From assembly GCA_046498385.1 (NCBI GenBank), contig JAWOAU010000011.1, positions 4,315-68,314 on the forward strand: DNA of 64,000 bases. Direction: 5' to 3'. Every line of letters begins with the position of its first letter. Positions within the stretch are counted from its first letter, which is position 1. Both the position numbers and the translations under genes were made by a program. The notes below the pieces were generated by a model. That model was given only the letters and a program-made list of their open reading frames with translations, was not told the DNA's origin and did no database searches. This DNA comes from Thermoplasmata archaeon (lineage in GTDB: Archaea; Thermoplasmatota; Thermoplasmata; Halarchaeoplasmatales; Halarchaeoplasmataceae). Shown here piece by piece: positions 5,363 through 62,866 of the stretch.

Positions 5363-5367
5363 GGATA

Positions 5368-11823: not shown

Positions 11824-11962
11824 TTTTGATACCCCCAAGGTAACACTACAGCAAGTCTTTCTAGAATATATAAACGTTGTGTGGTAATCACCATTTTCAG
11901 ATGGTAATCGCACTCGACAACATTTATATCGTGTACCGCACCTAAACCCTCTTTGAAATAAC

Positions 11963-12937
11963 ATGAAAATAGGGGTCGTAGGTGTCGGGTCCATGGGTCA
12001 GAATCACGCCCGTGTCCTTGACCAGATAGGGTATCTTGCAGGTGTTATGGATTCTAAAAAAACCGCAGCCAAAGCCGCGGGTGAAAAACACAACGTACCG
12101 TGGTTCACCGATCTAAAGGGATTCCTGGAAACCGGTATGGACGGGGTAACGGTGGCTACACCTGCACGGACCCATGTGGACGTATGCGAAGAGATGATCA
12201 AAGAGGGGATACCGGTACTGGTGGAAAAGCCCATAGCGCTATCGCTCCCAAAGGCTGAAAGTCTGGTGAAACTGGCAGAGGAACAAAACGTTGTTCTGGC
12301 GGCGGGGATGATAGAAAGACACAACCCGGTGGTATCCTCCGCAAAAAAACTTCTCCAGGACGGAAACGTAGGTGACGTGATAACCATCAGCTCCAAGCGG
12401 GTGAGCTCCTTTCCCACTCGTGTAGCGGATATGGGTGTGATCCATGATCTCGCCATCCACGACGTGGACGTCATGCGCTACCTCATAGGAGAAGAACCGG
12501 AAAAGGTATTCGCCTTGGGCGGTCCCGCCAATCAAGGTAAATACGAGGACCACGCCAACATGATGCTGCACTTTCCAGGAGACATAACAGGCGTTTTGGA
12601 GGTCAACTGGCTCACACCTCATAAGGTGAGAAAACTCTCACTCACCTGTTCCAACGATTTCATCGAGATAGACTACATCGCCCAGTCCCTTGTGCTCACC
12701 TCTTCCAGGCTCATGGAATACGATACCAGCAATCTGTTCGACATACCTCTTGAGCACAACATACGCAAGTACACAGTTAAGCGTCAGGAACCGCTCATGA
12801 AGGAGATGGAGGATTTCGTCGGTGCCGTTAAAAAGAAGCACCCGCCCCTAGTTACCGGTAAGGACGGCTTGTTGAGCATGAAAGTGGTGGATGCCGCCAG
12901 ACGCTCCATGGTAGAGGGGAAGGAGGTCTACGTTTGA
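11963..12937 (+). CDS. Gfo/Idh/MocA-family NAD-dependent oxidoreductase (UDP-GlcNAc(A) 3-dehydrogenase, WbpB-like)
   Basis: The N-terminal Rossmann motif MKIGVVGVGSMGQNHARVL and the 324-aa length fit the family. The 4-nt ATGA overlap with the downstream acetyltransferase is typical of wbpB-wbpD-like sugar-modification pairs. Confidence 0.75.
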   Translation: MKIGVVGVGSMGQNHARVLDQIGYLAGVMDSKKTAAKAAGEKHNVPWFTDLKGFLETGMDGVTVATPARTHVDVCEEMIKEGIPVLVEKPIALSLPKAESLVKLAEEQNVVLAAGMIERHNPVVSSAKKLLQDGNVGDVITISSKRVSSFPTRVADMGVIHDLAIHDVDVMRYLIGEEPEKVFALGGPANQGKYEDHANMMLHFPGDITGVLEVNWLTPHKVRKLSLTCSNDFIEIDYIAQSLVLTSSRLMEYDTSNLFDIPLEHNIRKYTVKRQEPLMKEMEDFVGAVKKKHPPLVTGKDGLLSMKVVDAARRSMVEGKEVYV

Positions 12938-18422: not shown

Positions 18423-18507
18423 TGCGAGGGAAGGGATTTGAACCCTTGGACCTCTATAGGACAGCGCCCTCAACGCTGCGCCGTTGGCCATGCTTGGCTA
18501 CCCTCGC
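18423..18507 (-). tRNA. tRNA-Leu (anticodon GAG), type II
   Basis: The reverse complement folds with acceptor GCGAGGG/CCCTCGC, anticodon stem CAGCG/CGCTG with loop TTGAGGG, a long variable arm, T-arm AAGGG-TTCAAAT-CCCTT and discriminator A. Confidence 0.85.
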
Positions 18508-45549: not shown

Positions 45550-48549
45550 ATGAAAAAAGATGTTTTAATAATCGGCGGCGGAATCTCTGGCGTTCAATCC
45601 GCACTTGACCTGGCCCAGAAGGGTTATGAGGTGGTGCTGGTTGATAAATCTCCTAGTATAGGTGGGAACATGGTGAAATTGGATAAGACTTTTCCTACTA
45701 ACGACTGTTCTATATGCATATCGGCTCCTAAGATGGTGGAAGCCAGCAGGAACGAGAATATTACATTACTGACTTACTCGGAGGTAAAGGAACTTATCGG
45801 CAACGCTGGTGGATTCAAGGTTAAAATCTGGAAGAGAACAAAGTACGTTGACCCCGAGGTCTGCACAGGATGCGGAGACTGCGAAGAGGTCTGTCCGGTG
45901 GAAGTACCGAGCGAGTTCGAGCAGAAATTGTCCGACAGAAAGGCGATTTACGTTGAATTCCCTCAATCGGTTCCCCTCACATACACCCTGGATTACGCAA
46001 ACTGCGTGGGCTGCGGCGCCTGCGAGCGGGTGTGCGATGCCGGGGCCATCAATTTCCTGGAAAACTCAAGGGAGATCGCGATAGAGGTTGGAAGCATAAT
46101 CGTGGCTACGGGTTACGAGATGATGCAGCCCGACGAGTGGAGGGAAGAGTACGGTTACGGTAAATATCCCAATGTGTTAACAGCCATGGAGTACGAGAGA
46201 TTGCTGTCCGCCTCAGGACCCACCGGCGGCAAGGTGCTGAAAAGAAGTGACGGAAAACCCCCGGAGTCGGTCGCGTGGATACAGTGCGTCGGCTCCAGGT
46301 GCAAGCAGAAGGGTATGCCCTACTGTTCAAGGGTATGCTGTATGTACGCTACCAAACAAGCGTCCATAAGCAAGGGAGAGAATCCGGAGCTTGATACTGC
46401 GGTTCACTACATTGATCTTAGGGCTTATGGCAAGGACTTCCAGCAGTACTTTGACAAGGCGAAAAAAGAGGGTGTCAACTATTTAAGGGGCAGGCCGTCT
46501 AGAGTTTACCAGACCGAGGATGGAAGGTTAGCAGTAGAATATGAGGATACTGAAAGGGGAGAAGTCACAACTAACGTCGTCGATATGGTAGTCTTGTCTG
46601 CAGCCATTATACCATCCTACGGAAACCAGAAGTTGGCGGAGATTTTGGATATAGAGTTAGACGAGAACGGTTTCTTCGAATCCAAGGATCTTCTCACTGC
46701 ACCTACGGATTCTACACGGGAAGGTATCTACCTAGCTGGATGTGCCCAAGCACCTAAGGATATTCCCGACAGTGTTGCACAGGCCAGCGGTGCAGCGGCA
46801 CAGGCGATGACCCCTATCAAGAACAGGAAAAGGAAAGGTGTACCAGAGAAAACTCCTGAAAAAGATGTAAGCGCCGAAGGACCGTGCATAGGCGTTATCG
46901 TTTGCGACTGCGGAAAGAATATAGCTAACTATATCGACGTTCCGGATGTAGTGGAGAGAATAAAGGATTGGCCGGGTGTTGTCCACGTTGAAGAGACCAT
47001 GTTCGCATGCTCTGAAGACTCGCAGACGAGAATCAAAGAGATGATCGAAGAAAAGAACCTGAACAGGCTGGTGATAGCGGCATGTTCGCCGACCACCCAC
47101 GGACCACTTTTCCAAGATACCTTGGAAGAAGCCGGATTGAACCGCTACCTTTTCGAGATGGCAAATATAAGAAATCAGTGCAGCTGGGTTCATAGTCATG
47201 ATGTCGAAAAAGCCACTGATAAAGCAGAGATCTTGACAGAGATGGCAGTCGAGAAGGTGAAGAATTTAAGTCCCTTGGAAGAGCAGACCATCGAGATCAG
47301 AGACCGGTCGATAATCATAGGGGGAGGTGTTGCGGGGATGCAAACTGCGCTGAGCCTTGCGGATTCCAGCATCAAAGTTACCTTGATAGAGAGGGAAGAA
47401 AAACTCGGGGGTAAATTGAACACGTTGAATACGCTTTTCCCAACCGATATCGATGCCCAGGAATTAGCTGACAAGCTTATACATCTCGTGGGGGACAGCG
47501 ATAATATCAGGGTGATGACAAATGCCAACATCGAAGCTATCGACGGGTACATAGGCAATTATGAAGTGCAGGTAGATGGAGAGACGATAGATGGGGACAC
47601 GATAATCCTAACCACTGGATTCCAGGAGATCGATCCAACTGATTTCTATCACTACGGTGATGACGACCGGATAATGACACAGCTGGAACTCGACCGGGCT
47701 CTTCAAAGGGACGAATTGAAAGACCCGAAAAATGTCGTTTTCATCAACTGTGTAGGTGCCATGGAAGAAGAAAGACCGTGGTGCTGTCGTGTAGGATGCG
47801 GGAACTCACTGAAGAACGCCAAAGCGATCAAAGAGAAATATCCAGATTCAAACGTTTACATCATGTACAAAGACATGAGGGTGTTCGGTAAAAGGGAAGA
47901 GGAGTACTACATGGACGTTTCAGAGAAGGACGGGGTCATCTTTCTTCGATACTCGACGGAGAATAAACCCGATGTCACTGTTGGAGAAGATCAGCTCGAC
48001 ATCAAAGTTTATGACAACCTTTTGGATGAGGACTTGGAGATAGATGCGGATTATCTTGTTCTCGCTATGCAACTCGAAGGTGACAAGAGCGCAAGAGAGC
48101 TCAAAAAGATGTTGAAGATCTCTTCTAATCCAGCGAACTTTTACATGGAGGCACACGCCAAACTAAGGCCTTTAGAATTCCCTGCCGAAGGTGTTTATCT
48201 GGCAGGTGGGGCACACTATCCAAAAAACATCTCGGATACTTTGGCTCAAGCCCTAGGAGCCGCTTCGAAGGCTTCGATCCCTATGATGAAGGGGTTCACT
48301 AAAAGTGAAGGCATAACTGCAGTCGTTGACGAAGACACCTGCATGGGATGCAGATTGTGTATAGATGTGTGCCCCTTCGGATCCATCGATTTCAACGAAG
48401 AAAAAGGTGTTGCAAAAGTTACTCCCGTTCTTTGTAAGGGGTGCGGGCTCTGTACTGCTACATGCCGTTCAGGTTCTATACAACAGAAGGGGTTTACGGA
48501 TAACCAGATACTTTCTATGATCAAAAATGCCACCAAAGGGGCGACTTAA
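45550..48549 (+). CDS. hdrA: Heterodisulfide reductase subunit A, a double-length (999 aa) form with two complete FAD-binding HdrA modules and ferredoxin-like domains
   Basis: The first module begins [24 protein letters not shown] and includes ...CxxCxxCxxxCP. The second begins at about residue 590 with [19 protein letters not shown]...GGKL, followed by [12 protein letters not shown] and [11 protein letters not shown]. Confidence 0.9.
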
Positions 48550-48550
48550 T

Positions 48551-48991
48551 ATGGGGGATGAAAATAAAATAGGAAATTGGGACCCGGTCATCGTCGGTTT
48601 CTGCTGTAACTGGTGCAGTTACGCCGGTGCAGATCTCGCAGGAACATCTAGAGAGCAGTACCCACCGAATATCAGGGTTATCAAGGTCATGTGCTCGGGC
48701 AGGATAAGTCCGGAATTTATTTTGAAGACGTTCCAGGAAGGGGCAGACGGCGTGCTGGTTTCTGGCTGCCATCCGGGAGATTGCCACTACATAGAAGGGA
48801 ATTACTACACTCGAAGAAGGCTGACCATCCTTTGGGATTTCCTAGATTACATGGGTATAGAACCAGAAAGACTTAAGCTATCATGGATATCGGCAGCCGA
48901 GGGCAAAAAATTCGCAAACGTTGTTGAGGAGTTCACTGACAAGGTGAGAGAACTAGGACCGCAGAAAAAACTACGGAAAGGGGTAGAATGA
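48551..48991 (+). CDS. mvhD: MvhD/FlxD-like delta subunit ([2Fe-2S] electron-transfer partner of HdrA)
   Basis: The motifs [19 protein letters not shown] ... KVMCSGRI...[10 protein letters not shown] match MvhD. The protein is 146 aa. Confidence 0.85.
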
Positions 48992-49872
48992 CCAGAGATT
49001 ACGAAAAGATAGAAGAAGAGATAAAAGAACAGGCGAAGGAGTGGCTGGAAAACGACGACGTGAATTACCTTATAGGATATGAAAAGGGGTCCGACCCACT
49101 CATCGCGAGACCAGTCTTCATCAGAACTCCAGAAGATGCAGACAGGTTAGTATGGAATCAGGGATGCGTCAACAACCTCACGAGATTTTTGGTCGAGAAC
49201 ATAAGGAAAGAGAAGGACACCACAATCGGTATAGTCGTGAAACCGTGCGACTCCAAAGCGATCGTCGAACTGATCAAGGAGAACGTTCTACCAAGAGAAA
49301 GAATGAAGATAATAGGCGTTACATGTGAAGGCATGATAGATAAGGACAAGGAAGAGGACGATACCTTGGCAGATAAGTGTCAGGTCTGTACAACTCATAA
49401 TCCAGTTATAGCCGATGTTGTCTTTGGCCCCGAAGTCGAGGAAGATTTTACAGATGAATATCAAGATATACAGGACATCGAAGAGATGGATGTTGAGGAG
49501 AGATGGGAGTACTGGGAAGATCAACTTTCCAAGTGCATACGCTGCTATGCGTGCAGAGACGTATGCCCAATGTGCTATTGTGAGGAATGTGTTTTCGAGC
49601 GTGAGAAACCACATCGATGGCTGGACAAGAGCGTTACGAAAGAAGATAATTTTTTCTACCACATGATAAGAGCGTTGCACCTTGCGGGTCGATGTATAGA
49701 CTGCGGTGAGTGCGAGAGGGTCTGTCCCATGGACATCCCTATAAGAAAGATGAACAGGATATTGGAGAAATGTGTGAAAAAGAGATTCGATTTGAAACCA
49801 GGTATGGATGTGGATGATAAAAGTCTGTTCGGTTCTTATGATAAAGATGATCCAGAGGAGGTCATTGTATAG
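48988..49872 (+). CDS. Iron-sulfur cluster-binding protein (FlxC/FrhB-like) with two 4Fe-4S ferredoxin motifs
   Basis: The motifs [16 protein letters not shown] and [12 protein letters not shown] are present. The protein is 294 aa and overlaps mvhD by ATGA. Confidence 0.6.
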
Positions 49873-49873
49873 G

Positions 49874-50917
49874 ATGAGTGATACAGTGAATTATGTCCTA
49901 AAAAAAGAGGATTTAACTGACTTCCTGAGTTCATTTTCAGATTATAAAGTTGTTCTGCCCGTAAAAAAGGACGGAGCAGTCAAGTTTAGAACGTACGATG
50001 GCGAAGGGCCTGATTTGGAAGTTGGGCCCACACAAAAATCATGCAAAGAAGTCTTCTTCCCACAGACGGAAAAGATGTTCGACTTTAAAAGAGAAAGGAA
50101 CAGATTCGTCGGGACGGAAGAAGTAAATTTTGAGCCTGAAAAAACCCTCCTATTTGGTGTAAGGCCCTGCGATGCCAGGGCGATGACACAATTGGACAAA
50201 GTTTTCGGAGAAGACTACAGGGATAACTACTATATGGATCGAAGGGAAAAAACAACTATCATCTCCGTAGGATGTGAAGAATCCGCTAAGAACTGTTTTT
50301 GTACATCCGTGGGTGGTGGACCTCATACCGAGGAGGGCTCTGATATGCTCTGGACAGACATAGGCGACAGCTACCATGTTGAGATTCTCACCGAGAAAGG
50401 TGAGGAGATAGTCAAGAACACCGAGGATTTCTTGGACAAGGCATCCAAGGAAGATGAAAAGAAATCGGAAAAAGTGAAGGAGGATGCGGTGGATAAGATA
50501 AATAGATCACTGGATACTGATGGCCTACAGGATGCCCTAGAAGACGTGTTCGAAAACGATTACTGGGAGCAGGTAGCAGATAGGTGCATAGGCTGCGGTA
50601 TCTGCACGCTATTGTGTCCTACTTGTTACTGCTTCGATATCAACGATATTATAGTTGGAGATAAGGGGTGGAGAGAACGCAACTGGGACTCTTGTCAATT
50701 CGATTATTATTCCATACACGCTTCGGGATACAACCCGAGACCCGAGAAAAAGCACAGGCTGAGAAACAGATTGTATCACAAGTACCTATATATGCCTAAG
50801 AATATCGACGTGATCGGCTGTGTTGGATGCGGGAGATGCATAACGAATTGTCCCACGGACATAGACATAATCGAGGTACTGGAACAGGTGGAGGAGGTGA
50901 GTAGCGATGGAAAATGA
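49874..50917 (+). CDS. AsrA/HydB-like 4Fe-4S subunit (sulfhydrogenase-beta / anaerobic sulfite reductase A family)
   Basis: The motifs CIGCGICTLLCPTCYC and CVGCGRCITNCP are present. The track ORF starts at 49808. The likely start is MSDTVNY at 49874. Confidence 0.65.
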   Translation: MSDTVNYVLKKEDLTDFLSSFSDYKVVLPVKKDGAVKFRTYDGEGPDLEVGPTQKSCKEVFFPQTEKMFDFKRERNRFVGTEEVNFEPEKTLLFGVRPCDARAMTQLDKVFGEDYRDNYYMDRREKTTIISVGCEESAKNCFCTSVGGGPHTEEGSDMLWTDIGDSYHVEILTEKGEEIVKNTEDFLDKASKEDEKKSEKVKEDAVDKINRSLDTDGLQDALEDVFENDYWEQVADRCIGCGICTLLCPTCYCFDINDIIVGDKGWRERNWDSCQFDYYSIHASGYNPRPEKKHRLRNRLYHKYLYMPKNIDVIGCVGCGRCITNCPTDIDIIEVLEQVEEVSSDGK

Positions 50918-51854
50918 TTCACCATACAGACCATTCACCGCAACACTCATAGATATCAGGTTGGAGTGCGGTGGAGAAAGACCCATAAGAACCTTTAGAT
51001 TGGAAATAGATGATGAAGAAGCAAAAGAAAATTTTGATTACAAGCCAGGTCAGTTCGTGATGGTTTCCGTGTTCGGAGAAGGAGAATCTCCATTCGCGCT
51101 GTCATCCCCCCCTACCGATGAGGTACTCGAGGTCACAGTGATGAGGGTTGGTAATGTGACAACTAGTCTCCATTCGTTGAACGTAGGAGACAAGGTAGGT
51201 ATTAGAGGGCCCTACGGAAATGGTTTCCCAGTGGGGGAATGGGAAGGTAAGAACTTGGTTTTCATCGGTGCAGGTATAGGTATAGCGCCCCTTCGCTCGG
51301 TATATGGTTATGTTCTCAGTGATGAACATCGGGACAAATTTGGAGATGTGAACCTTATTTACGGTGCCAGGAGCATAAACGATATGGCTTACAAGGACCA
51401 ACTAGAGGAGTTGGGCGGAAGAAACGACTTAGAGCTCTGGAGATGCATAGATTGGAACTTCGGTGAAGAAGGCATCATCAAAGAGTGTGCTGAAGAGGGA
51501 TGGGAACCGGTCGATCTAGATTATAAGGAAGAGACGAGGACTTGTTCACTCGATAACTGCTACACTGCGTTCGTTCCAGAGCTGGTGAGAATCGTAGAAC
51601 CGGATCCCGAGAACACCATAGCACTTACATGCGGTCCACCCATAGCTATCAAACTCACCCTAAAAGCCTTGATGGATTTGGGTTGGCAGCCTTCAAATGT
51701 TTACACTACTTTGGAGAACCGGATGAAATGCGGTATAGGTAAATGCGGCCGGTGCAACATAGGGAACAAGTACGTTTGTAAGGATGGGCCAGTCTTCAAT
51801 TATGAAGAGCTGATGGAGATGAAACCGGAGAACGAAGTCACCGAGGAGGCCTAG
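50907..51854 (+). CDS. AsrB/HydG/PyrK-like FAD- and NAD(P)H-binding subunit with a C-terminal 2Fe-2S
   Basis: The FAD/NAD ferredoxin-reductase fold is indicated by RTFRLEID...PGQFVMVS...GPYGNGF...VFIGAGIGIAP. The C-terminal cysteines are CGIGKCGRC...C. Confidence 0.7.
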   Translation: MENDSPYRPFTATLIDIRLECGGERPIRTFRLEIDDEEAKENFDYKPGQFVMVSVFGEGESPFALSSPPTDEVLEVTVMRVGNVTTSLHSLNVGDKVGIRGPYGNGFPVGEWEGKNLVFIGAGIGIAPLRSVYGYVLSDEHRDKFGDVNLIYGARSINDMAYKDQLEELGGRNDLELWRCIDWNFGEEGIIKECAEEGWEPVDLDYKEETRTCSLDNCYTAFVPELVRIVEPDPENTIALTCGPPIAIKLTLKALMDLGWQPSNVYTTLENRMKCGIGKCGRCNIGNKYVCKDGPVFNYEELMEMKPENEVTEEA

Positions 51855-51867
51855 GGGTTGAATTAAC

Positions 51868-52254
51868 ATGAAAGTGAAAAGAGATAAGGAATTTCTTGAT
51901 AAAGTAGAAGAACTGTCAGGACAGTCAGTCACTTCTTGTATCCGATGCGGGACTTGTTCTGCTGGATGTCCTTTTGTGGAGGAAATGGACGAACTACCAG
52001 AGAGAGTATTCGAAAGGATAATCCTCGGTGACAAAGAAGGGGTGTTGGAGAGGAACACCATGTGGATATGTGCAGCGTGCTTCCAGTGCAGCGTGAGATG
52101 CCCGAGGGATATCGATATCGCCAAGATCATGGAAGCAGTAAGACAGATCACGTTAAGAAAAAACATCGATAAAGTAGATTTAGATCATGTGGAAAATATG
52201 GCTGAACTACCGCAGCTCGCTGTAGTTGGCTGCTTCAGGAAGGAGACTGGATAA
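51868..52254 (+). CDS. hdrC: Heterodisulfide reductase subunit C-like (2x4Fe-4S)
   Basis: The motifs CIRCGTCSAGCP and CAACFQCSVRCP are present. The protein is 128 aa and lies immediately upstream of hdrB. Confidence 0.8.
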   Translation: MKVKRDKEFLDKVEELSGQSVTSCIRCGTCSAGCPFVEEMDELPERVFERIILGDKEGVLERNTMWICAACFQCSVRCPRDIDIAKIMEAVRQITLRKNIDKVDLDHVENMAELPQLAVVGCFRKETG

Positions 52255-52255
52255 C

Positions 52256-53110
52256 ATGGACGGGGATGCACTGTTGTACTATCCAGGATGTACGCTAAAG
52301 ACAAAGGCCAGCGATTACGAACAGAGCGCTATGGCGGTCATGGAAGCTCTGGGGAAACCGTTGGTCGAGATGGATAACTGGTACTGTTGTGGAGCCGTCC
52401 AATCGTTGACCACCGATGATATCATGCACCAGATCGCACCGATAAGAACAATGTGCTGTGCACAGGAACAGGGTGAGAAAGAAGTCATCACGCTGTGTGA
52501 TATGTGCTACAACGTTCTAAAACAGGCTAACGAGAGGATGAAGGATAAACCGGATGACCTGGAAACAATGAACGAGTTCCTGACCGAGGATTCGGATTAC
52601 GAAGGTAACGTAGATGTAAAACACCTTTTCCAGATATTGATCGATATGAAGGACGAGATCAAGAAGCGGGTTACCAAACCATTGGATAATCTAAAAGTGG
52701 CTACTTACTACGGCTGCATGCTGTTAAGACCGGACATTGTCGCCATCGACGGCCCTGAGAACCCGACTATCATGGGAGATCTGCTGGAGTGCACTGGTGC
52801 ACAGGTGATCAGAACCCCGAAGAGGACAGAATGCTGTGGATCGTATCACACGGTAAACAGGAGCGATATCGTTGAAAAGAGGGTGGAAGATATCGTGGGC
52901 AGGGCCGTGGAGGAGGGGGCAGAAGCCATCGTGCTTTCGTGCCCCTTGTGCCAGTTCAACCTTGACTTTCACCAAAGGGCTACCGAATACGAGATACCGG
53001 TCTTTTACCTGACCGAACTGATAACCCTCTCATTTGGATTGGATGTAGAGATGAAGAAACATAAGGTCGACCCGAAAAAATTACTAAAGGATAAGGATAT
53101 TTTGGAGTGA
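52256..53110 (+). CDS. hdrB: Heterodisulfide reductase subunit B-like (two CCG domains)
   Basis: The segments YYPGCTLKT...WYCCGA and YYGCMLLRP...ECCGS are present. The track ORF starts at 52226. Confidence 0.85.
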   Translation: MDGDALLYYPGCTLKTKASDYEQSAMAVMEALGKPLVEMDNWYCCGAVQSLTTDDIMHQIAPIRTMCCAQEQGEKEVITLCDMCYNVLKQANERMKDKPDDLETMNEFLTEDSDYEGNVDVKHLFQILIDMKDEIKKRVTKPLDNLKVATYYGCMLLRPDIVAIDGPENPTIMGDLLECTGAQVIRTPKRTECCGSYHTVNRSDIVEKRVEDIVGRAVEEGAEAIVLSCPLCQFNLDFHQRATEYEIPVFYLTELITLSFGLDVEMKKHKVDPKKLLKDKDILE

Positions 53111-53117
53111 GATTGGT

Positions 53118-53834
53118 ATGCCTGAAGATGAAGAGAAAGATAAAGAAGAGGAAGAAAATCTAATCGACATATACGTCATGGGTAAGAGGTACAAAGTACC
53201 CGAAGGACTCACTATCATGACTGCGCTCGAGTATGCAGGATACAAGTTCGTACGTGGATGTGGTTGCAGAGGAGGTTTCTGCGGAGCGTGTGCCACGGTC
53301 TACAGGAGTAAGGACGAGTACAAGTTGAAGATGGATTTAGCGTGTCAAACGGCAGTCGAGGAGGGAATGTTCTTGGTGCAGCTACCCTTCGTTCCTGGTG
53401 TCAGGGAAGAATATGACATCGATGAAGTGAATCCTGAGAAAAGGGACAACGTGATGTTGGAGTACTATCCTGAGATCGCCAGGTGCGTATCCTGCAATAC
53501 CTGCACAAAATCTTGTCCACAAGATATCGAAGTGATGGATTACGTACAGGCAGCGCTACGAGGGGATATCGAAAGATGTGCAGATCTATCGTTCGATTGT
53601 ATCCAATGCGGTTTATGCTCTATAAGATGTCCCGCAGATATCAAACATTATCATCTCGCACAGCTTGCTAGGAGGATAACTGGCAAGTATATTGACAAGG
53701 ACAGTGAAGAACTTGAGAAGAGGGTTAAAGAGATCGAGGAAGGAAAGTTCGATAAAGATTTCGAAAAATTGGTCAACATGAGCGAAGAGGAGTTGAAGAA
53801 AGCCTATGACGAGAGAAAATTCGAAAAGGAGTGA
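53118..53834 (+). CDS. Succinate dehydrogenase / fumarate reductase iron-sulfur subunit (SdhB/TfrB-like; 2Fe-2S plus 4Fe-4S/3Fe-4S)
   Basis: The 2Fe-2S segment is RGCGCRGGFCGACA. The motifs CVSCNTCTKSCP and CIQCGLCSIRCP are also present. Confidence 0.75.
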   Translation: MPEDEEKDKEEEENLIDIYVMGKRYKVPEGLTIMTALEYAGYKFVRGCGCRGGFCGACATVYRSKDEYKLKMDLACQTAVEEGMFLVQLPFVPGVREEYDIDEVNPEKRDNVMLEYYPEIARCVSCNTCTKSCPQDIEVMDYVQAALRGDIERCADLSFDCIQCGLCSIRCPADIKHYHLAQLARRITGKYIDKDSEELEKRVKEIEEGKFDKDFEKLVNMSEEELKKAYDERKFEKE

Positions 53835-55492
53835 TCACGATGGCTGACGGTTATCCAGAATATATGAGAAAATCCATTGAAAAAGTAGAAAAAACGAGAC
53901 CTGATAGGATCGGTAAGACCTTCGAAAGGATGTCAGCTGAACAGGCTGATGAGACGCTTCATAACTTCCATCCCGATTATAGAGAAGGTGGAAAAAGAGA
54001 AATTAAAATAGGGCCCAGTAAGGGTGAGATCGGTCCGACAGAACTTGTAGATCTCCTGGAGGCTCACAGCCTCATCGCCCCTTCTGATATAGATCTGTCA
54101 CAGGTAGATCACGATGTCGATATACTGGTCATCGGAGGCGGGGGTGCAGGTACAGTTTCAGCTCTCTGGGCTGTAAAAGAAGGCATCAAACCGGAGAATA
54201 TACTAATATCTACAAAACTCAGACACGGTGATGCAAACAGCATGATGGCACAAGGAGGGATTCAAGCTGCTGATAAGAAAGATGATTCACCTGTACAGCA
54301 TTACTTAGATGCCATGGGAGGAGGGCACTACACGAACAAACCCGAACTAGTAAAGATACTGACCAGAGATGCACCGAAGATAATCCACTGGCACGAAGAA
54401 CTTGGAGTGATGTACGATAGGGACGAAGATGGTAATTTTATCGAATTGCCCGGTGGTGGAACATCTAGGTACAGATTACACTCTGCTAGAGATTATACCG
54501 GTCTTGAACTGATGAGGGTCATCAGGGATGAAGCTAGGAATTTAGAGATTCCTGTATTGGAGTTCACCCCAGCGGTAGAACTCCTTAAGGATGATAAAGG
54601 TCAGGTGGCCGGTGCGATCCTGATGAATTTGGAGACCAATGAATACTACGTCGTCAAAGCAAAGTCAACAGTTATGGCAACTGGTGGTTTCGGTAGACTG
54701 CACATACAATCATATCCTACGACAAACCATTATGGCGCCACCGGAGATGGTCTCATAATGGGCTACAAAGCTGGCATCCCCTTGAGAGATATGGACAGCG
54801 TTCAATATCATCCAACTGGTGCAGCTTATCCAGACCAGATAGTAGGGCTTCTTGTTACAGAAAAGGTTAGAAGTCTAGGTGGTCAACCAGTGAATAAACA
54901 CGGAGAACTGTTCGTGAATCCTCTCGAACCTAGGGATATCGAAGCATCTGCACTTATCAGGGAATGCTACGGAAGAGATAACGGTGTAACAACACCTACG
55001 GGGATGAAAGGTGTCTGGCTTGATGCTCCGTTGATAGATGAGATCAAGGGTGAAGGAACGGTAGCTGAAAGGCTCCCCGCTATGGTAAGACAGTATGAGA
55101 GGTTCGGAATCGACATGACAAAGGATCCAATATTGGTATTTCCCACACTTCACTATCAAAACGGCGGTTTAGTGATCGATACAAACGCATCTACACCTGT
55201 ACCAGGATTGTTTGCTGGTGGTGAGGTAGAAGGTGGTGTCCACGGGAAGAACAGACTGATGGGTAATTCTCTGTTGGACTACAGCGTATTCGGTAGGATA
55301 GCAGGTATCAGTGCTGCTAAGCACGTTAAGAAAGCAAAGATTGGTAAGCTGAGCCTCCAACACATAACGGATTACGAAAAAGAGATGGAGAAGAACGGGA
55401 TAAAAACGGATAGAGAATCGCCTATGCTTCTGCCGGAGTACAGAGGTAAGAGAGTATTAGAAAGGCACCTCGATGTAGAGGTGACCCTGTAG
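53831..55492 (+). CDS. Fumarate reductase / succinate dehydrogenase flavoprotein subunit (SdhA/TfrA-like)
   Basis: The dinucleotide fold is DILVIGGGGAGTVSALWA. The covalent/FAD region QGGIQAA and the conserved HYQNGG are present. The protein is 553 aa. Confidence 0.85.
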   Translation: MITMADGYPEYMRKSIEKVEKTRPDRIGKTFERMSAEQADETLHNFHPDYREGGKREIKIGPSKGEIGPTELVDLLEAHSLIAPSDIDLSQVDHDVDILVIGGGGAGTVSALWAVKEGIKPENILISTKLRHGDANSMMAQGGIQAADKKDDSPVQHYLDAMGGGHYTNKPELVKILTRDAPKIIHWHEELGVMYDRDEDGNFIELPGGGTSRYRLHSARDYTGLELMRVIRDEARNLEIPVLEFTPAVELLKDDKGQVAGAILMNLETNEYYVVKAKSTVMATGGFGRLHIQSYPTTNHYGATGDGLIMGYKAGIPLRDMDSVQYHPTGAAYPDQIVGLLVTEKVRSLGGQPVNKHGELFVNPLEPRDIEASALIRECYGRDNGVTTPTGMKGVWLDAPLIDEIKGEGTVAERLPAMVRQYERFGIDMTKDPILVFPTLHYQNGGLVIDTNASTPVPGLFAGGEVEGGVHGKNRLMGNSLLDYSVFGRIAGISAAKHVKKAKIGKLSLQHITDYEKEMEKNGIKTDRESPMLLPEYRGKRVLERHLDVEVTL

Positions 55493-57744: not shown

Positions 57745-58283
57745 GGAAGAATATACGATTGTGTGGAAGCGGTGGTCAGGGCATTATGACTGCAGGTTAT
57801 ATCCTTGGAAAAGCAGCATCGGTTTTCCATGACTACAATGCCGTACAGATGCAGAGCTATGGCCCAGAAGCGAGGGGAGGGGCGGCCCGTTCTGAAGTAG
57901 TTATATCCGACCGTGAGATCGGATACTGTGGATTACCTAGTACTGACAATATGATGGTGATGTCTCAACCCGCTTGGGACAAGTACCACAAGGACCTTAC
58001 AGAGGAATCTATCGTTGTATTGGACCCGGACCTAGTTGTCAATTATGATTTCGAAAATGTCATAGAGATTCCAGCCACCCAGATGGCTGAGGACCTGGGT
58101 AATAAGATCGTGGCAAATATTGTCATGATCGGCGGATTCAACGCTGTTACAAAGCTGGTTCCCGACGAGGCATTGGAGGAATCCGTCAAGGACAGCGTAC
58201 CCAAACAATTCACGGAATTGAACTTTAACGCCCTGAAGAGGGGAAGGGACTACGTTACCAGTCACCACACCAAGAAGGATTGA
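57741..58283 (+). CDS. 2-oxoacid:ferredoxin oxidoreductase gamma subunit (paralog 2)
   Basis: The motifs LCGSGGQGIMTAGYILGKAA...SYGPEARGG are present. Confidence 0.85.
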   Translation: MRKNIRLCGSGGQGIMTAGYILGKAASVFHDYNAVQMQSYGPEARGGAARSEVVISDREIGYCGLPSTDNMMVMSQPAWDKYHKDLTEESIVVLDPDLVVNYDFENVIEIPATQMAEDLGNKIVANIVMIGGFNAVTKLVPDEALEESVKDSVPKQFTELNFNALKRGRDYVTSHHTKKD

Positions 58284-60247
58284 CCTATCAGTATAACAAT
58301 GGTCAATATGATGGTACATACCATCAACACTCTGCCAAGGGCGAATTTAAATTCCGTAGGATCGGATTGGTACTTTATTCCCACCGAAAAATAGGTGATC
58401 ACCGCACTCATAGTTAGTAAATACCCCGCTATAACAAGGGTAAATTCGTAGGGAGTTATTATCCCCTGACCCGAGATGTCCATAAACACTCTATATAACA
58501 TTGAATAAAGGGCCACTATTATACCCATGACCACGGGAGCGAAGAACATGGATGTGGCTTCCATCATCTCCACCGATTGGACCAGCTCCGAACGTATATC
58601 CTTTTCCATCTCCTGCATATCCTTGAGATACTCGGAATTTTGTAATATGATGGTACCTGCGGATGGTGGACTCTTTTGAGAGACGGATATCACGGATTTC
58701 ATACTGGCTTTGATCGTCCTAGAGGGGTGTGAGTTCAAGATCCCTTTGTTTCCAAAGAGGGCATCTTTTAAAGGCATCCTTTTTAATCTCGTTAAGGTGG
58801 TTATGTTTTTAAACAAGTTTCCGGCCTTGGAGCCGCTCATGCTTTTTCCGGTCTCTTCTATGGATTTTTCTAGGGATTTCCCCTCGGCCATCCTGCTCCC
58901 CAGCTGAAAAAGTGCATCGGGAAATTCTTTCTCCAGTTCCAATATCTCCATCCTTTGCTTTCTTTGTTTCCAGGAACTACTTATAAGGTAGTAAGAGACT
59001 GCAAGGACGGGAGCCCATATCCAGGGCAGGGGCATCAAAAATTCCAGTTGAGTGCGAAATAACCATACTAATATTAGTCCCGAAACAAGGATCGCCGACG
59101 GTATATAGTATGCAGTTTTCTCATCAGTGTCCATGGACGGTAAAACAGTGGTGCCAGGGCGGTTGATCAATATCTTATATGAATAAACAAATGCACCGAA
59201 GGGTATCAGTATGTTCATCAGAAGGACCACGTGGGCCAGTTTCAGACCACCGGTCTGTTCAGCCTGTTCTTGGTATATTGAGGTCAAATCCAGACCACCT
59301 AGGGTCATCATAGGCATCATGGCGCCGATTATAAGGGGCAGTAAGATACCTAGGGCAAAAAGTATGGTAGTGGGTGTTTTAAGAGAATTGGAAAAGTCCC
59401 GTATCTTTTGCTTTGTTCCTGTTGTTATGATGTCGTTGGCACGTTGAAGGGTGGCCTCTAGTCCTTCTTGGGTATTTTCCAATACAGACGAACGGATAAC
59501 ATAAAGTGATCTTTTTAGGTCGTCGTTCCATTCGCCCCATTCGCCCGCAAGGGCTATGATTGAGTCCTCCAAACTGCTCCTCTGCCTCAGATACACTTCC
59601 CAAATGGCTTTTTTTAGCCTTGATGCCAGGGGTTCGTCTACATTATTCGCCGCAAACAATATCGCATTGTGCAGTGACGGATGTGCCCTCATGGACATGG
59701 TCATGTAATTTATCCCTTCGGGGGCGGAACCTATTGTTTTGGCTTTGAGCTGTTGCGATCTGATCTCAGGATAATTGGCTAAATAGACGAGCACGCCCAT
59801 GGGAGCGGCCAAAAATAATGGTATCACCCACAATAGGACGGATATAAAGCTTAACCCGTAGGTCAGGTGGAATATGGATACTATGACTAATAATATCATA
59901 AAGGTTACAAATGCTCCGAAGACGGAGAGCAGCATTATTTCTTCTTCCTCAACATCGTAACCTATGAATTCCGCGGTACGATCGAACTCCGCTTTGGTGT
60001 AGGAACGTTGAATAACTTTGTATTTTTTTGATTTTTTCTCTTTTTCTTTTAAGCACTTTTTGTATTCCAAAGAATCCTTTCCATGCAGCACCAGTGCCTG
60101 GACTAGGTCCCTTTCAGCATCCTTTAGTTTCCGACGGGCTTCAAGGTATTTTTCCTTTTTTTCCTTTCTCTTTTCTATTATCTCTACCCGTGATGCTCCA
60201 AACCTTTTGTTTACTGCCTTGCAGAGTTTGATATATTGATCAGACAT
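58262..60247 (-). CDS. Archaeal type IV pilus/archaellum-type membrane platform protein (FlaJ/TadC/PilC-like) with an N-terminal coiled-coil extension
   Basis: About 9 transmembrane helices and two cytoplasmic T2SS-F-like domains are present. The N-terminal 100 aa are K/E-rich and precede the first transmembrane helix. The gene follows the ATPase gene. Confidence 0.7.
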   Translation of the reverse strand: MSDQYIKLCKAVNKRFGASRVEIIEKRKEKKEKYLEARRKLKDAERDLVQALVLHGKDSLEYKKCLKEKEKKSKKYKVIQRSYTKAEFDRTAEFIGYDVEEEEIMLLSVFGAFVTFMILLVIVSIFHLTYGLSFISVLLWVIPLFLAAPMGVLVYLANYPEIRSQQLKAKTIGSAPEGINYMTMSMRAHPSLHNAILFAANNVDEPLASRLKKAIWEVYLRQRSSLEDSIIALAGEWGEWNDDLKRSLYVIRSSVLENTQEGLEATLQRANDIITTGTKQKIRDFSNSLKTPTTILFALGILLPLIIGAMMPMMTLGGLDLTSIYQEQAEQTGGLKLAHVVLLMNILIPFGAFVYSYKILINRPGTTVLPSMDTDEKTAYYIPSAILVSGLILVWLFRTQLEFLMPLPWIWAPVLAVSYYLISSSWKQRKQRMEILELEKEFPDALFQLGSRMAEGKSLEKSIEETGKSMSGSKAGNLFKNITTLTRLKRMPLKDALFGNKGILNSHPSRTIKASMKSVISVSQKSPPSAGTIILQNSEYLKDMQEMEKDIRSELVQSVEMMEATSMFFAPVVMGIIVALYSMLYRVFMDISGQGIITPYEFTLVIAGYLLTMSAVITYFSVGIKYQSDPTEFKFALGRVLMVCTIILTIVILIGQSFLVW

Positions 60248-61961
60248 ATCTCGTCCTCATTTCGTACCATTCCATCCACTCTTTTTTTATCTCCTCATGT
60301 GAACCGGTTCCGTGATACTCCTCCACCAGATTCCAAAACTTGTCGTTGGTTTCCGAAACCCATGATGGACTTAGGAGATCCATTCCTTTCTTTTTCGACG
60401 TCTCTACCATCTTCGCTCTTAGGTCTGAACGCAAGTTGATATTCTCTATGGCTTGCTCATAGGTGATCGCCCATGACCGGGCGATGTGACCTATACGCTC
60501 GGAGTCTCTTTTCAATGTATTCGTGCTCTTTAGACCGTTGTCATAACGCATAAGGTCTGTAAAGGTACCTTCCTCGTATTCGGAGACATGTGTCAAGGTT
60601 CTTATCCTTCGCTGGGTTCCCCCTGGACGTATCATCCCGGCTATAAGCACTAAGTCCGTTGCGGAGAAGCTCTCCTCTGATATACCCATATCGAAGACCA
60701 CCCTTTCATAGACCGCATCCGGGGAGTCGCCGTGTATGGTCCCCATCACCGCACTTCCCGCGGTGCCGGCCCTCATAGCCTCGTATAGGGTTCTGGCTTC
60801 CTTACCTCTAACCTCACCAAGTACTAGGGATGATTCCCCGAGGCGTAAAGATACCCGCAGGGCATCGTCGGCGGTCATCTCGTTCTTTTCAAGAAGGGAA
60901 CCCACCGTTAGACTCTGTATGTTGTAACCCAACTGCTGCATGGTACGGGAAGGGAGTTCCCGAGTATCTTCGATGGTGAGTATCCGCTGACTTCTGGGGA
61001 ATTCCATCATCAACGCACTGAGTATAGATGTCTTACCCGCACCTCTGCTGCCTGCTACAAGTAAGGTACTTCGCCCGTCGACAAGAAAGGAAAGCAAACC
61101 TGCGGCTAGGGGTGTCATGCTCCCCACCCTGATCAGCTTCGGTAAGGTCCATGGTTCCTTGTTTCTTCTTCTGAGGGCCAAAGCGATCCCTTCCTGGCTC
61201 AAAGGTCTGCCGATGGCGGTAATACGGGTCTCGAACTCTTTTAAATTAGTTTCCAATACCGGGAATGCCTCGGAGAAGGGCTTTCCGCTTTCGGCCCTGA
61301 ACCGGGCCAACATACTCTCCACTTCTTCGTTGGTCAGATATATGTTAGTCCTGCATTTGTCCCTTATATCCGGTACACCCCCGAGCTCAACGTAAACGTT
61401 ATTGTCCTCCGAAGGGGCATCGATATAGATGTCCTGTACATGGGGGTCCCTTAACAGGGTTTCCACGACGCCATAGCCTGCGGTGTATTTTGTCAGTATG
61501 TCTACCAACACCTGAATGTCACTTGCAGTTTCTTCCCTGTTATCCTCCAAGGATATATCCAATTTTTCCGATGTCTTACTTATCATCTGTTTGCCTATGG
61601 ACTTGATGTACCTCCGTACCCCTTCGGTCGATGAAAGATCGGCCTTGATAGATGAATGGGCGTATAGGTTATCCATCACCTCGTTTAGTAGGACGTAGTA
61701 TTTCTTATCGAGGGTATATTCGTTGGGGGCGATGTAGTAATAATCATCGGTGCTATTTTTATCTCTGTACAAAGACACCTTGGTGTGCTTGATATAATAT
61801 TCTAGAACTTTTTCCAGATATTCGGGCAGTTTTATCGTCACCCAGGTGTAGGAAAAGCTGGGTCTCAATTCTCTTTCTCTCTCAGATATCTTTAGGATGC
61901 CGTTGAAAAACCGGTCGCCCCTTATATTTCCTATCTCCTTTACCTGCTCTGCGAAATTCAT
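60240..61961 (-). CDS. Type II/IV secretion-family ATPase (FlaI/ArlI/TadA/PilB-like) for archaeal type IV pilus assembly
   Basis: Walker A is LVAGSRGAGKTS, Walker B is LVLGEVRG, and His-box-like TIHG is present. The protein is 573 aa. Confidence 0.8.
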   Translation of the reverse strand: MNFAEQVKEIGNIRGDRFFNGILKISERERELRPSFSYTWVTIKLPEYLEKVLEYYIKHTKVSLYRDKNSTDDYYYIAPNEYTLDKKYYVLLNEVMDNLYAHSSIKADLSSTEGVRRYIKSIGKQMISKTSEKLDISLEDNREETASDIQVLVDILTKYTAGYGVVETLLRDPHVQDIYIDAPSEDNNVYVELGGVPDIRDKCRTNIYLTNEEVESMLARFRAESGKPFSEAFPVLETNLKEFETRITAIGRPLSQEGIALALRRRNKEPWTLPKLIRVGSMTPLAAGLLSFLVDGRSTLLVAGSRGAGKTSILSALMMEFPRSQRILTIEDTRELPSRTMQQLGYNIQSLTVGSLLEKNEMTADDALRVSLRLGESSLVLGEVRGKEARTLYEAMRAGTAGSAVMGTIHGDSPDAVYERVVFDMGISEESFSATDLVLIAGMIRPGGTQRRIRTLTHVSEYEEGTFTDLMRYDNGLKSTNTLKRDSERIGHIARSWAITYEQAIENINLRSDLRAKMVETSKKKGMDLLSPSWVSETNDKFWNLVEEYHGTGSHEEIKKEWMEWYEMRTRYV

Positions 61962-61965
61962 GTAT

Positions 61966-62466
61966 TCACCCTATTATTCCGTAGGCCTTATGTTTAACAT
62001 CATTTGATATGGTAATAAATTTACCACCTATGCGTTCAAGGTCCTCCTTGGTTGTTTTACGGCATTTCGGACAATCATCGGCTTTCATCAAGTTGAAAGC
62101 TATTTTTTTGTAGGTTTTAAAAAGTTCTTGGGGGTCCTTTTTTATCTTGTTGTCAAGTTCACTGAATAATATCTTCGGGGATACCTTGCAATCCTTGCAT
62201 TTACTTTCATTCGTTTTTCTCAATGACAATCTTTTCAATTCTCTAGATAGTGTACCCAAGTTGCTTAAAATCCGCACCGCATCGCCCTTTATCATGGTTT
62301 CTTTATGGTCTGAAAATATGATATTGTCTATGTTATATTCCATGGACATCATGCTCACAATTTGCGGGTAGCATCTTTTCAGGTCGAAATCCACTTCACA
62401 CTCTATGCAGTTAACGATGATTCTCCTGCCGCTGGGTTTTTCTTTAACATCATAATCACATTTCAT
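61966..62466 (-). CDS. Cys-rich hypothetical protein (several CxxC pairs) leading the pilus ATPase operon
   Basis: The pairs CIEC, CKDC and CPKC are present. The protein is 166 aa, and its stop lies 4 nt before the ATPase start. Confidence 0.45.
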   Translation of the reverse strand: MKCDYDVKEKPSGRRIIVNCIECEVDFDLKRCYPQIVSMMSMEYNIDNIIFSDHKETMIKGDAVRILSNLGTLSRELKRLSLRKTNESKCKDCKVSPKILFSELDNKIKKDPQELFKTYKKIAFNLMKADDCPKCRKTTKEDLERIGGKFITISNDVKHKAYGIIG

Positions 62467-62566
62467 ATGATCAACGCCATGACATTTGAGCAGACACTAG
62501 AATAATATAAAAGGCTTGCTATTCTGAGGACGGTAACATTTTTATCTTATGACTTAATCCACCGTA

Positions 62567-62866
62567 TTGATTATCATGTATGCAGTATTCGAAGTTCCCG
62601 GGGATAAAAAAGACATAGTACCTAAGGTACTCTCCGATGAGTTGGTAAGCAGACAGAGTTCCAGTGTTAGAGATGGTGAAAGTCTGGGATTTGAGGATGG
62701 AACTACCTACGCTTTGATCGAGGGTATGGAAGAAGGTGTAGGGAAGGCCGAGGAACTCTTCAAAGAGAACGATATAGAAGCGATGGAAGACGATAAAGAA
62801 GTCTACGAAGCCATCAAAGCAGCCGACGAGGATGCAGCAGCAGGTGTTGGCACTATCTTCGGATGA
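62567..62866 (+). CDS. Small highly acidic hypothetical protein (about 96-99 aa)
   Basis: It is a stand-alone ORF in a divergent intergenic region. Its sequence runs MYAVFEVPGDKKDIVPKV...EAIKAADEDAAAGVGTIFG. Confidence 0.35.
   Translation: MIIMYAVFEVPGDKKDIVPKVLSDELVSRQSSSVRDGESLGFEDGTTYALIEGMEEGVGKAEELFKENDIEAMEDDKEVYEAIKAADEDAAAGVGTIFG

Follow-up and report, generated by a model that had tools for sequence, protein, structure and literature searches.

What does a three-gene locus encoding a secretion ATPase, a polytopic membrane platform and a small cysteine-rich protein build in an archaeon of the phylum Thermoplasmatota? Thermoplasmatota have no rigid cell wall, and their surface appendages have, to our knowledge, barely been studied. 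The locus is found in a haloalkaliphilic member of the phylum, from an order described from a soda-saline lake, within a stretch of 64,000 nucleotides (nt) (contig JAWOAU010000011.1 of assembly GCA_046498385.1, positions 4,315 to 68,314). This whole stretch is called the window here, and all coordinates given below are window positions. An original prediction, made from the sequence alone, had read the three genes (hereafter the trio) as an archaeal type IV pilus assembly locus and as the likely partner of two giant pilin-like proteins encoded in the same window. The first part of this reading has been largely borne out. The trio is considered here, with a probability of about 0.7, to be a self-contained operon that encodes the core components, cytoplasmic as well as membrane-bound, of a type IV pilus-like (type IV filament) machine, belonging to a lineage conserved across Thermoplasmatota and closest to the systems of subclade 4F. 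With at least 257 loci among species-representative genomes, it is the most widely conserved type IV pilus-like module found in Thermoplasmatota, and for two of its three proteins the annotation reads "hypothetical".

A Probable Type IV Pilus-Like Core Operon

The three genes lie on the minus strand. The cysteine-rich cytoplasmic protein (61966–62466, 166 amino acids, aa) is encoded first, followed by a secretion ATPase of the T2SSE/FlaI-GspE type (60240–61961, 573 aa) and a polytopic platform protein of the TadC/PilC/FlaJ type (58262–60247, 661 aa); the list of open reading frames (ORFs) agrees exactly with the gene boundaries predicted originally. A gap of 4 nt separates the stop codon of the cysteine-rich gene from the ATG of the ATPase gene, and the ATPase and platform genes overlap by 8 nt. 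Both junctions appear to be translationally coupled and argue for a single operon, whose candidate promoter is a TATA-box-like element, TTTATATT (62504–62511, minus strand), read from the sequence 37 nt ahead of the start codon (ATG) of the cysteine-rich gene.

The ATPase matches the Pfam family T2SSE (PF00437) with 78 bits, the cutoff being 24.9. The Walker A motif GSRGAGKTS, already recognized in the original prediction, is located at aa 304–312 (nt 61026–61052), and the Asp box (IEDTRE, aa 330), the Walker B motif (LGEVRG, aa 381) and the His box (GTIHG, aa 407) are intact as well; all these catalytic motifs are invariant among relatives in the family alignment. None of the NCBIfam equivalog models reaches its cutoff with this protein: TadA (TIGR03819) scores 141 against 373, FlaI (NF058587) 114 against 550, and BasE (NF053672) 81 against 1000. 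Assignments to Tad, archaellum and bindosome systems have therefore been rejected, and the absence of adjacent arl genes agrees with the earlier view of a type IV pilus-like ATPase and platform that is not an archaellum. A bacterial Tad system (TadA/CpaF plus TadB plus TadC) is moreover at odds with a platform made of one 661-aa protein instead of two one-domain proteins. Among PDB sequences, the ATPase lies at roughly equal distance from afGspE (103 bits), CpaF (100 bits) and FlaI (79 bits). Some homologs of the family (P0076, P0085, and P0113) carry an FHA domain (PF00498) and are extended N-terminally of the ATPase core, which hints at a possible phosphorylation-dependent regulation in some lineages.

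One feature ascribed to the ATPase, a C-terminal extension of about 100 aa, had to be given up. Beyond the last aligned position, 118 residues remain in the protein where afGspE has 102, and 152 where FlaI has 142; beyond the end of the alignment with the NCBIfam FlaI model, 109 remain compared with 89. The excess amounts to approximately 10–20 aa over archaeal relatives, 50 aa over the bacterial CpaF and 33 aa over the Haloterrigena ATPase described below. The tail is conserved within the family and rich in invariant Trp, and it has no counterpart in the Haloterrigena homolog.

The platform protein has been predicted by hydropathy and AlphaFold2 (predicted local distance difference test, pLDDT, 83.6; predicted template modeling score, pTM, 0.77) to have about nine transmembrane (TM) helices. 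A helical hairpin at the N-terminus is followed by two TM helices and a first cytoplasmic domain of helices; three to four TM helices then lead to a second such domain, and three more TM helices come last. The two T2SS-F-like domains claimed for this protein are not equally supported. The first one (aa 180–307) is the only region that matches T2SSF (PF00482), with a marginal 27.4 bits over a cutoff of 25.2; the same Pfam family is matched by 18 of 26 diverse platform relatives, with a best E-value of 1.3e-9. The second one, a helical bundle at about aa 430–560 in the AlphaFold2 model, can be proposed only from its helix pattern, since the colinear alignment of the two halves of the protein by hhalign is non-significant (E-value of 0.05–0.12). 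In Foldseek comparisons of the platform, a PilC model ranked first and the cytoplasmic domains of EpsF and OutF gave target-normalized TM-scores of 0.54–0.62. A search of PDB sequences with the platform profile yielded no real match. The unusual K/E-rich N-terminal extension of about 100 aa noted earlier is a genuine and family-wide trait: K, R, E, and D make up 47% of the first 100 aa, the region is modeled as a helical hairpin (pLDDT 81–93), and in 47 sequences the charged region has a median length of 105 aa and is 41% charged.

The Cysteine-Rich Protein, a Probable Detached Module of the ATPase

The leading gene encodes a protein whose cysteines follow the layout C3-x16-C20xxC23-x8-C32 and C90xxC93-x38-C132xxC135. 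The three CxxC pairs pointed out originally are CIEC (20), CKDC (90), and CPKC (132), and C3 and C32 come in addition to them. In 39 diverse members of the family, C20, C23, C32, C90, C93, P97, C132, and C135 do not vary, and at least 90% of the members have C3. A word-indexed search retrieved nine relatives of this protein, and an exhaustive profile search with a hidden Markov model (HMM) retrieved 252 representative clusters. The protein shows no TM segment and belongs to no Pfam or NCBIfam family, and Pfam scans of the 39 members gave only three sub-threshold matches, all to DUF7351. The AlphaFold2 model (pLDDT 76.5, pTM 0.72) shows a small beta-sheet subdomain and then a bundle of helices; Foldseek found no match for this fold in the PDB or in a viral model library (best E-value of 0.44). 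The family profile gave chance-level matches only when compared with PDB sequences, for example to ferritin and RPB9. This is therefore a family with neither a Pfam model nor a structural match in these two collections.

The nature of this protein becomes clearer from the fusions in which it takes part. Among 150 listed clusters of the family, 11 are long proteins with the cysteine-rich domain at the N-terminus, and a T2SSE domain was found downstream of it in all six long members tested. Fusions of the cysteine-rich domain to the ATPase occur in eight loci, and 3 of the top 120 homologs of the ATPase are fused as well; the linker between the cysteine-rich domain and the start of the ATPase is about 10 residues long in one fused homolog. 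A fusion of the same type, P0257 (1224 aa), has its T2SSE domain interrupted by an intein with a LAGLIDADG homing endonuclease.

A comparable arrangement is known from subclade 4F, defined computationally by Makarova, Koonin and Albers in 2016 (PMC4858521). In this class, the ATPase of arCOG01818 ("MA1299-like") carries an extra N-terminal cysteine-rich domain, whose cysteines are not conserved in halobacteria and nanoarchaea, and the platform is a TadC protein of arCOG01814; the class also includes a coiled-coil cytoplasmic protein, with FtsZ-like genes nearby in halobacteria (PMC4858521). Nanoarchaea, two Thermoplasmata (Mx1201 and BRNA1), halobacteria (among them Haloterrigena GI 284176147) and Methanomicrobia (among them MA1299) form one clade with a support of 1.0, and the Mx1201, BRNA1, Haloterrigena, and MA1299 genomes are listed under clade 4 (PMC4858521). 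The closest match of the window ATPase outside its phylum is the ATPase of Haloterrigena turkmenica pHTUR04, with 43% identity and 233 bits, as against 103 bits for the clade 2 afGspE and 79 bits for the clade 3 FlaI. The platform encoded next to it scores 190 bits with the family profile of the window platform. In addition, aa 37–111 of the pHTUR04 ATPase align to the N-terminal half of the cysteine-rich family (17 bits and a single-target E-value of 1e-7 by hmmsearch, and an E-value of 1.8e-4 by hhalign), and this alignment covers three cysteines and an E-x-Y-x-G motif. The pHTUR04 ATPase is probably GI 284176147 itself, because Haloterrigena has a single clade 4 ATPase and this GI lies outside the chromosomal range. 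The nearest described relatives of the trio would consequently be the 4F systems and, since the ATPase, the platform and the N-terminal region of pHTUR04 all match, the cysteine-rich protein would correspond to the N-terminal domain of 4F ATPases, with a gene of its own. Given the fusions and this homology, weak as it is, the most likely reading of the protein is an N-terminal module detached from the ATPase. The original statement that it is not a known component has to be qualified, since an N-terminal cysteine-rich domain on 4F ATPases had been noted in 2016 (PMC4858521). As an obligatory and sometimes fused partner, this protein provides a concrete subunit that can be tested in the uncharacterized 4F machines, and the trio is a clean case of a secretion ATPase that has undergone domain fission and fusion.

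Conservation of the Trio Across Thermoplasmatota

Relatives of the locus were gathered with the ATPase alignment, and a scan of species-representative genomes returned 257 of them. The best 80 of these 257 are nearly all labeled Thermoplasmata or Thermoplasmatota, and include Ca. Saliniplasma, Ca. Natronoplasma, Ca. Haladaptatiplasma and metagenome-assembled genomes of Methanomassiliicoccales; a lookup of the fusions by cluster likewise returned names of Thermoplasmatota only and none of Methanomicrobia. In 85 of 88 sources, the cysteine-rich gene is located directly upstream of the ATPase gene or shares its reading frame; the platform gene follows directly downstream in 85 of 88 as well. The three sources without a cysteine-rich gene are ATPases at a contig end or not more than about 400 nt from it, and the three without a platform gene are loci that end shortly after, or inside, the ATPase. 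The cysteine-rich leader, included in the operon from the start, has thus proved to be a true and strictly linked component. Five loci reached through ATPase homologs have the trio with unrelated flanks, several genomes have two trios, and no universal fourth gene was found among the related loci.

Other genes accompany the trio in particular lineages. In a relative that is 76% identical (L002), a gene of the FtsZ/tubulin family (5492–6418 of that locus) lies about 1 kb upstream of the cysteine-rich gene, which echoes the FtsZ-like genes beside halobacterial 4F loci. In Ca. Natronoplasma, very large surface proteins with Flg_new_2 or PQQ repeats and HHH_5 domains are encoded directly upstream of the trio (L006, 1–7283; L007, 7–9209).

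Proposed Mechanism and Its Weight

In the proposed mechanism, a hexameric ATPase of the FlaI/GspE type would hydrolyze ATP and power the platform of the TadC/PilC type, which in turn would pull signal-peptidase-processed pilins from the membrane and add them to a surface filament. The small cysteine-rich protein, presumably equivalent to the N-terminal cysteine-rich domain of 4F-type ATPases and here a polypeptide of its own, would reside in the cytoplasm and most likely use its eight cysteines to bind two metal ions (Zn or Fe). It would dock on the N-terminus of the ATPase as a structural or regulatory adaptor, and it might also form a bridge to the charged N-terminal helical hairpin of the platform. 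The pilins and the prepilin peptidase would be encoded elsewhere in the genome, as described for the PilB3-C3 system of Haloferax. Of this scheme, the sequences establish the homology of the ATPase and platform, the strict linkage of the genes, the fusions and the conserved cysteines; the binding of the cysteine-rich protein to its partner and to metal, its bridge to the platform, the assembly of a filament and the nature of the substrates are inferred.

Further arguments for such a machine are the small pilin-like genes that flank more distant trios and the precedent of Haloferax for pilins encoded in trans. In 14 of the more distant trios, the flanking genes encode proteins of about 165 aa that start with RG/KG-VAGFF(E/L)(E/D) and continue with a hydrophobic helix, and another recurring pilin-like family begins with RG-V(T/I)(D/E)xPLEL. 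Judged from the motif only, the 165-aa proteins may belong to arCOG02981, which contains mostly stand-alone pilins with a "KG" motif and is prone to tandem duplication (PMC4858521). Profiles of these small families found no homolog in the window.

Several points weigh against the proposal. No small pilin was found in the 64-kb window by motif and profile scans, nor any Peptidase_A24 protein, the polytopic membrane proteins encoded there being HPP, DUF389, PAP2, MatE and the platform. The T2SSF score of the platform is barely above the cutoff and its second domain is undetected by sequence, and all E-values of its Foldseek matches are non-significant (>0.2). The homology between the cysteine-rich protein and the haloarchaeal N-terminus is weak and limited to the first half, and its metal binding and protein contacts are predictions. 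The 4F assignment depends on best-hit logic and on the probable identity of the pHTUR04 ATPase with GI 284176147, not on a phylogeny that includes the window sequence. Finally, no experimentally characterized member of the window lineage or of 4F was found in the literature, the Haloferax systems that have been studied being PilB3 (clade 2) and PilB1 (4C).

Substrates and Alternative Explanations

The most tempting substrates are the two giant proteins at the other end of the window. Both are encoded on the minus strand, at 2–5386 (at least 1795 aa) and 5368–11994 (about 2140 aa), and both contain Pilin_N, CARDB, VWA and MAM-like domains. They are tandem paralogs, with Pilin_N (PF07790) scores of 42 and 46 bits over a cutoff of 25.2. 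The true start of the second giant is probably internal, since its class III-like signal begins about 70 aa into the longest ORF. Scans of the window confirmed the earlier remark that no other proteins there have class III-like signals. On these grounds the trio could be viewed as a dedicated machine for the processing-dependent surface display or assembly of the giants, similar to a bindosome and without a small-pilin pilus. The tandem arrangement agrees with this view to some extent, because arCOG02981, the 4F-linked family, reportedly tends to duplicate in tandem and counts a CARDB protein of 1852 aa among its members (PMC4858521), the latter being the sole outside support for a link between the trio and the giants. 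This explanation is nevertheless doubtful. The giants are located 46 kb from the trio, with unrelated housekeeping genes in between, and the genes that adjoin them (a GFO/IDH/MocA oxidoreductase, a hexapeptide transferase and a GNAT protein) point to sugar modification and not to a pilus. Of 87 other loci, only one (L045) has a Pilin_N-type gene no more than about 8 kb from the trio, and there it encodes a pilin of 304 aa. Furthermore, the giants are not matched by the profiles of the recurring small pilin-like families, and tblastn of one giant against plasmids gave no match. The connection between the trio and the giants is therefore neither refuted nor supported, and the comparative evidence does not back it, so that the tie suggested originally is corrected here to an unsupported one.

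A more speculative proposal takes one of two forms. In the first form, the detached eight-cysteine protein would be a metal- or redox-sensing switch that couples the ATPase hexamer to the platform by way of the charged N-terminal hairpin and gates filament assembly according to the redox or metal state of the cell. In the second form, the trio would mount the two giant CARDB/VWA proteins as adhesins on the wall-less surface of Thermoplasmatota, in the manner of a bindosome. The proposal is put forward as an improbable one.

Still less probable is a machine for nucleic-acid or protein transport (DNA uptake or transfer) in place of an adhesive pilus. In five paralogous or distant loci, a HerA-like ATPase of about 450 aa (DUF87 plus HerA_C) is encoded directly after the platform (L077, 5942–8376; L053, L056, L064, and L087), the Haloterrigena locus has a DUF87 gene at a distance of 4 kb, and the large surface proteins of Ca. 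Natronoplasma directly upstream of the trio contain helix-hairpin-helix (HhH) domains (HHH_5). However, none of these HerA, DUF87, and HhH genes is present in the window or in most of the loci, and neither a relaxase nor a nuclease or ComEC-like channel was seen. One or more KG/RG-VAGFF pilin-like genes come after the HerA-like gene in three of the five loci that have it, in agreement with a filament.

The idea that the locus is a remnant or variant of the archaellum (arlI/arlJ) is effectively refuted, as the partial match to the FlaI model does not come near the equivalog cutoff, both afGspE and CpaF are stronger PDB matches than FlaI, and no arlB, arlH, arlF, arlG or arlCDE gene was found in the window or in any locus inspected.

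Neighboring Genes

Downstream of the trio, the platform gene and the OFOR gamma gene overlap convergently by 22 nt (58262–58283), as the original prediction had it, with the stop codon of the platform gene at 58262–58264 (tca in plus-strand letters) and that of the OFOR gamma gene at 58281–58283 (tga). The overlap has no evident function, because in the relative L002 the two genes merely abut. A functional linkage with OFOR was considered and rejected: only some 20 of 82 loci have OFOR genes next to the trio, their orientation differs, and the L002 pair lacks the overlap. Redox genes form a run (45550–55492) upstream of the OFOR operon; one of them encodes an FAD/pyridine-nucleotide oxidoreductase of 999 aa that has several 4Fe-4S domains, and an ORF of 553 aa (53831–55492) is also part of the run. 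The equivalent region of L002 encodes an FAD_binding_2 protein, Fer4/CCG-type proteins and subunits of a NiFe hydrogenase. This redox block and OFOR are syntenic with the trio in the closest relatives only. On the other side, an acidic protein of 99 aa that belongs to no family (62567–62866, plus strand) is encoded divergently from the trio and is kept only in three close relatives (L002, L010, and L021). Elsewhere in the window, a tRNA-Leu(gag) has been called by ARAGORN at 18423–18507 (minus strand), while Rfam at its gathering threshold lists only the other two tRNAs.

Comparison with Known Systems

Several known systems share part of the features of the trio. In bacterial GspE and PilB proteins, a tetracysteine zinc-binding subdomain is inserted in the C-terminal ATPase domain. 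The association of a CxxC…CxxC metal site with a secretion ATPase is similar, although the resemblance is an analogy only: the cysteines of the window system are on a separate N-terminal module, and its ATPase has a single Cys. The bindosome of Sulfolobus (BasE/BasF), in which a type IV pilus-like ATPase and platform act on large non-pilin proteins with class III signals, is the model for a trio that would serve the giants; on the other hand, the BasE model score of the window ATPase is far below the cutoff, and no substrate genes are linked to the trio. The PilB3-PilC3 system of Haloferax volcanii offers the parallel of an ATPase/platform operon that contains no pilin genes and assembles pilins encoded elsewhere. 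Its ATPase belongs to another clade (clade 2, whose representative afGspE reaches only 103 bits), and no cysteine-rich partner has been described for it. Closer in taxonomy is the CdiP machine of Cuniculiplasma (Thermoplasmatales), a Thermoplasmata pilus system whose pilin genes are located about 500 kb from the machinery operon (PMC12448462). Unlike the trio, the CdiP machine comprises two ATPases and a platform that is split, and a cysteine-rich partner has not been described for it (PMC12448462).

The likeness to subclade 4F is the most extensive one. In both cases a cysteine-rich domain is tied to the N-terminus of the ATPase (as a separate upstream gene in the window, and as a fusion in eight related loci), the platform is a single large TadC protein, and pilins are often stand-alone; the 4F clade already includes two Thermoplasmata genomes. 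HerA and FtsZ-like neighbors recur in loci related to the trio, as they do in halobacteria, and a HerA gene has been listed beside a stand-alone arCOG02981 pilin in Haloarcula hispanica (Table S4 of PMC4858521). On the other hand, the window locus has no pilin genes, and no pilins of the arCOG02981 type ("KG") were detected in the window. The cysteine-rich module is here a separate gene for a 166-aa protein, and is fused in only about 10% of the related loci. It has a second CxxC…CxxC cluster, on the helical bundle, that is unmatched in the haloarchaeal ATPase, and the platform begins with about 100 aa of K/E-rich helical sequence, which the platform of Haloterrigena does not have. What is new with respect to the computationally defined 4F class is therefore the fission of the domain, the presence of a second cysteine cluster and the coiled-coil extension of the platform.

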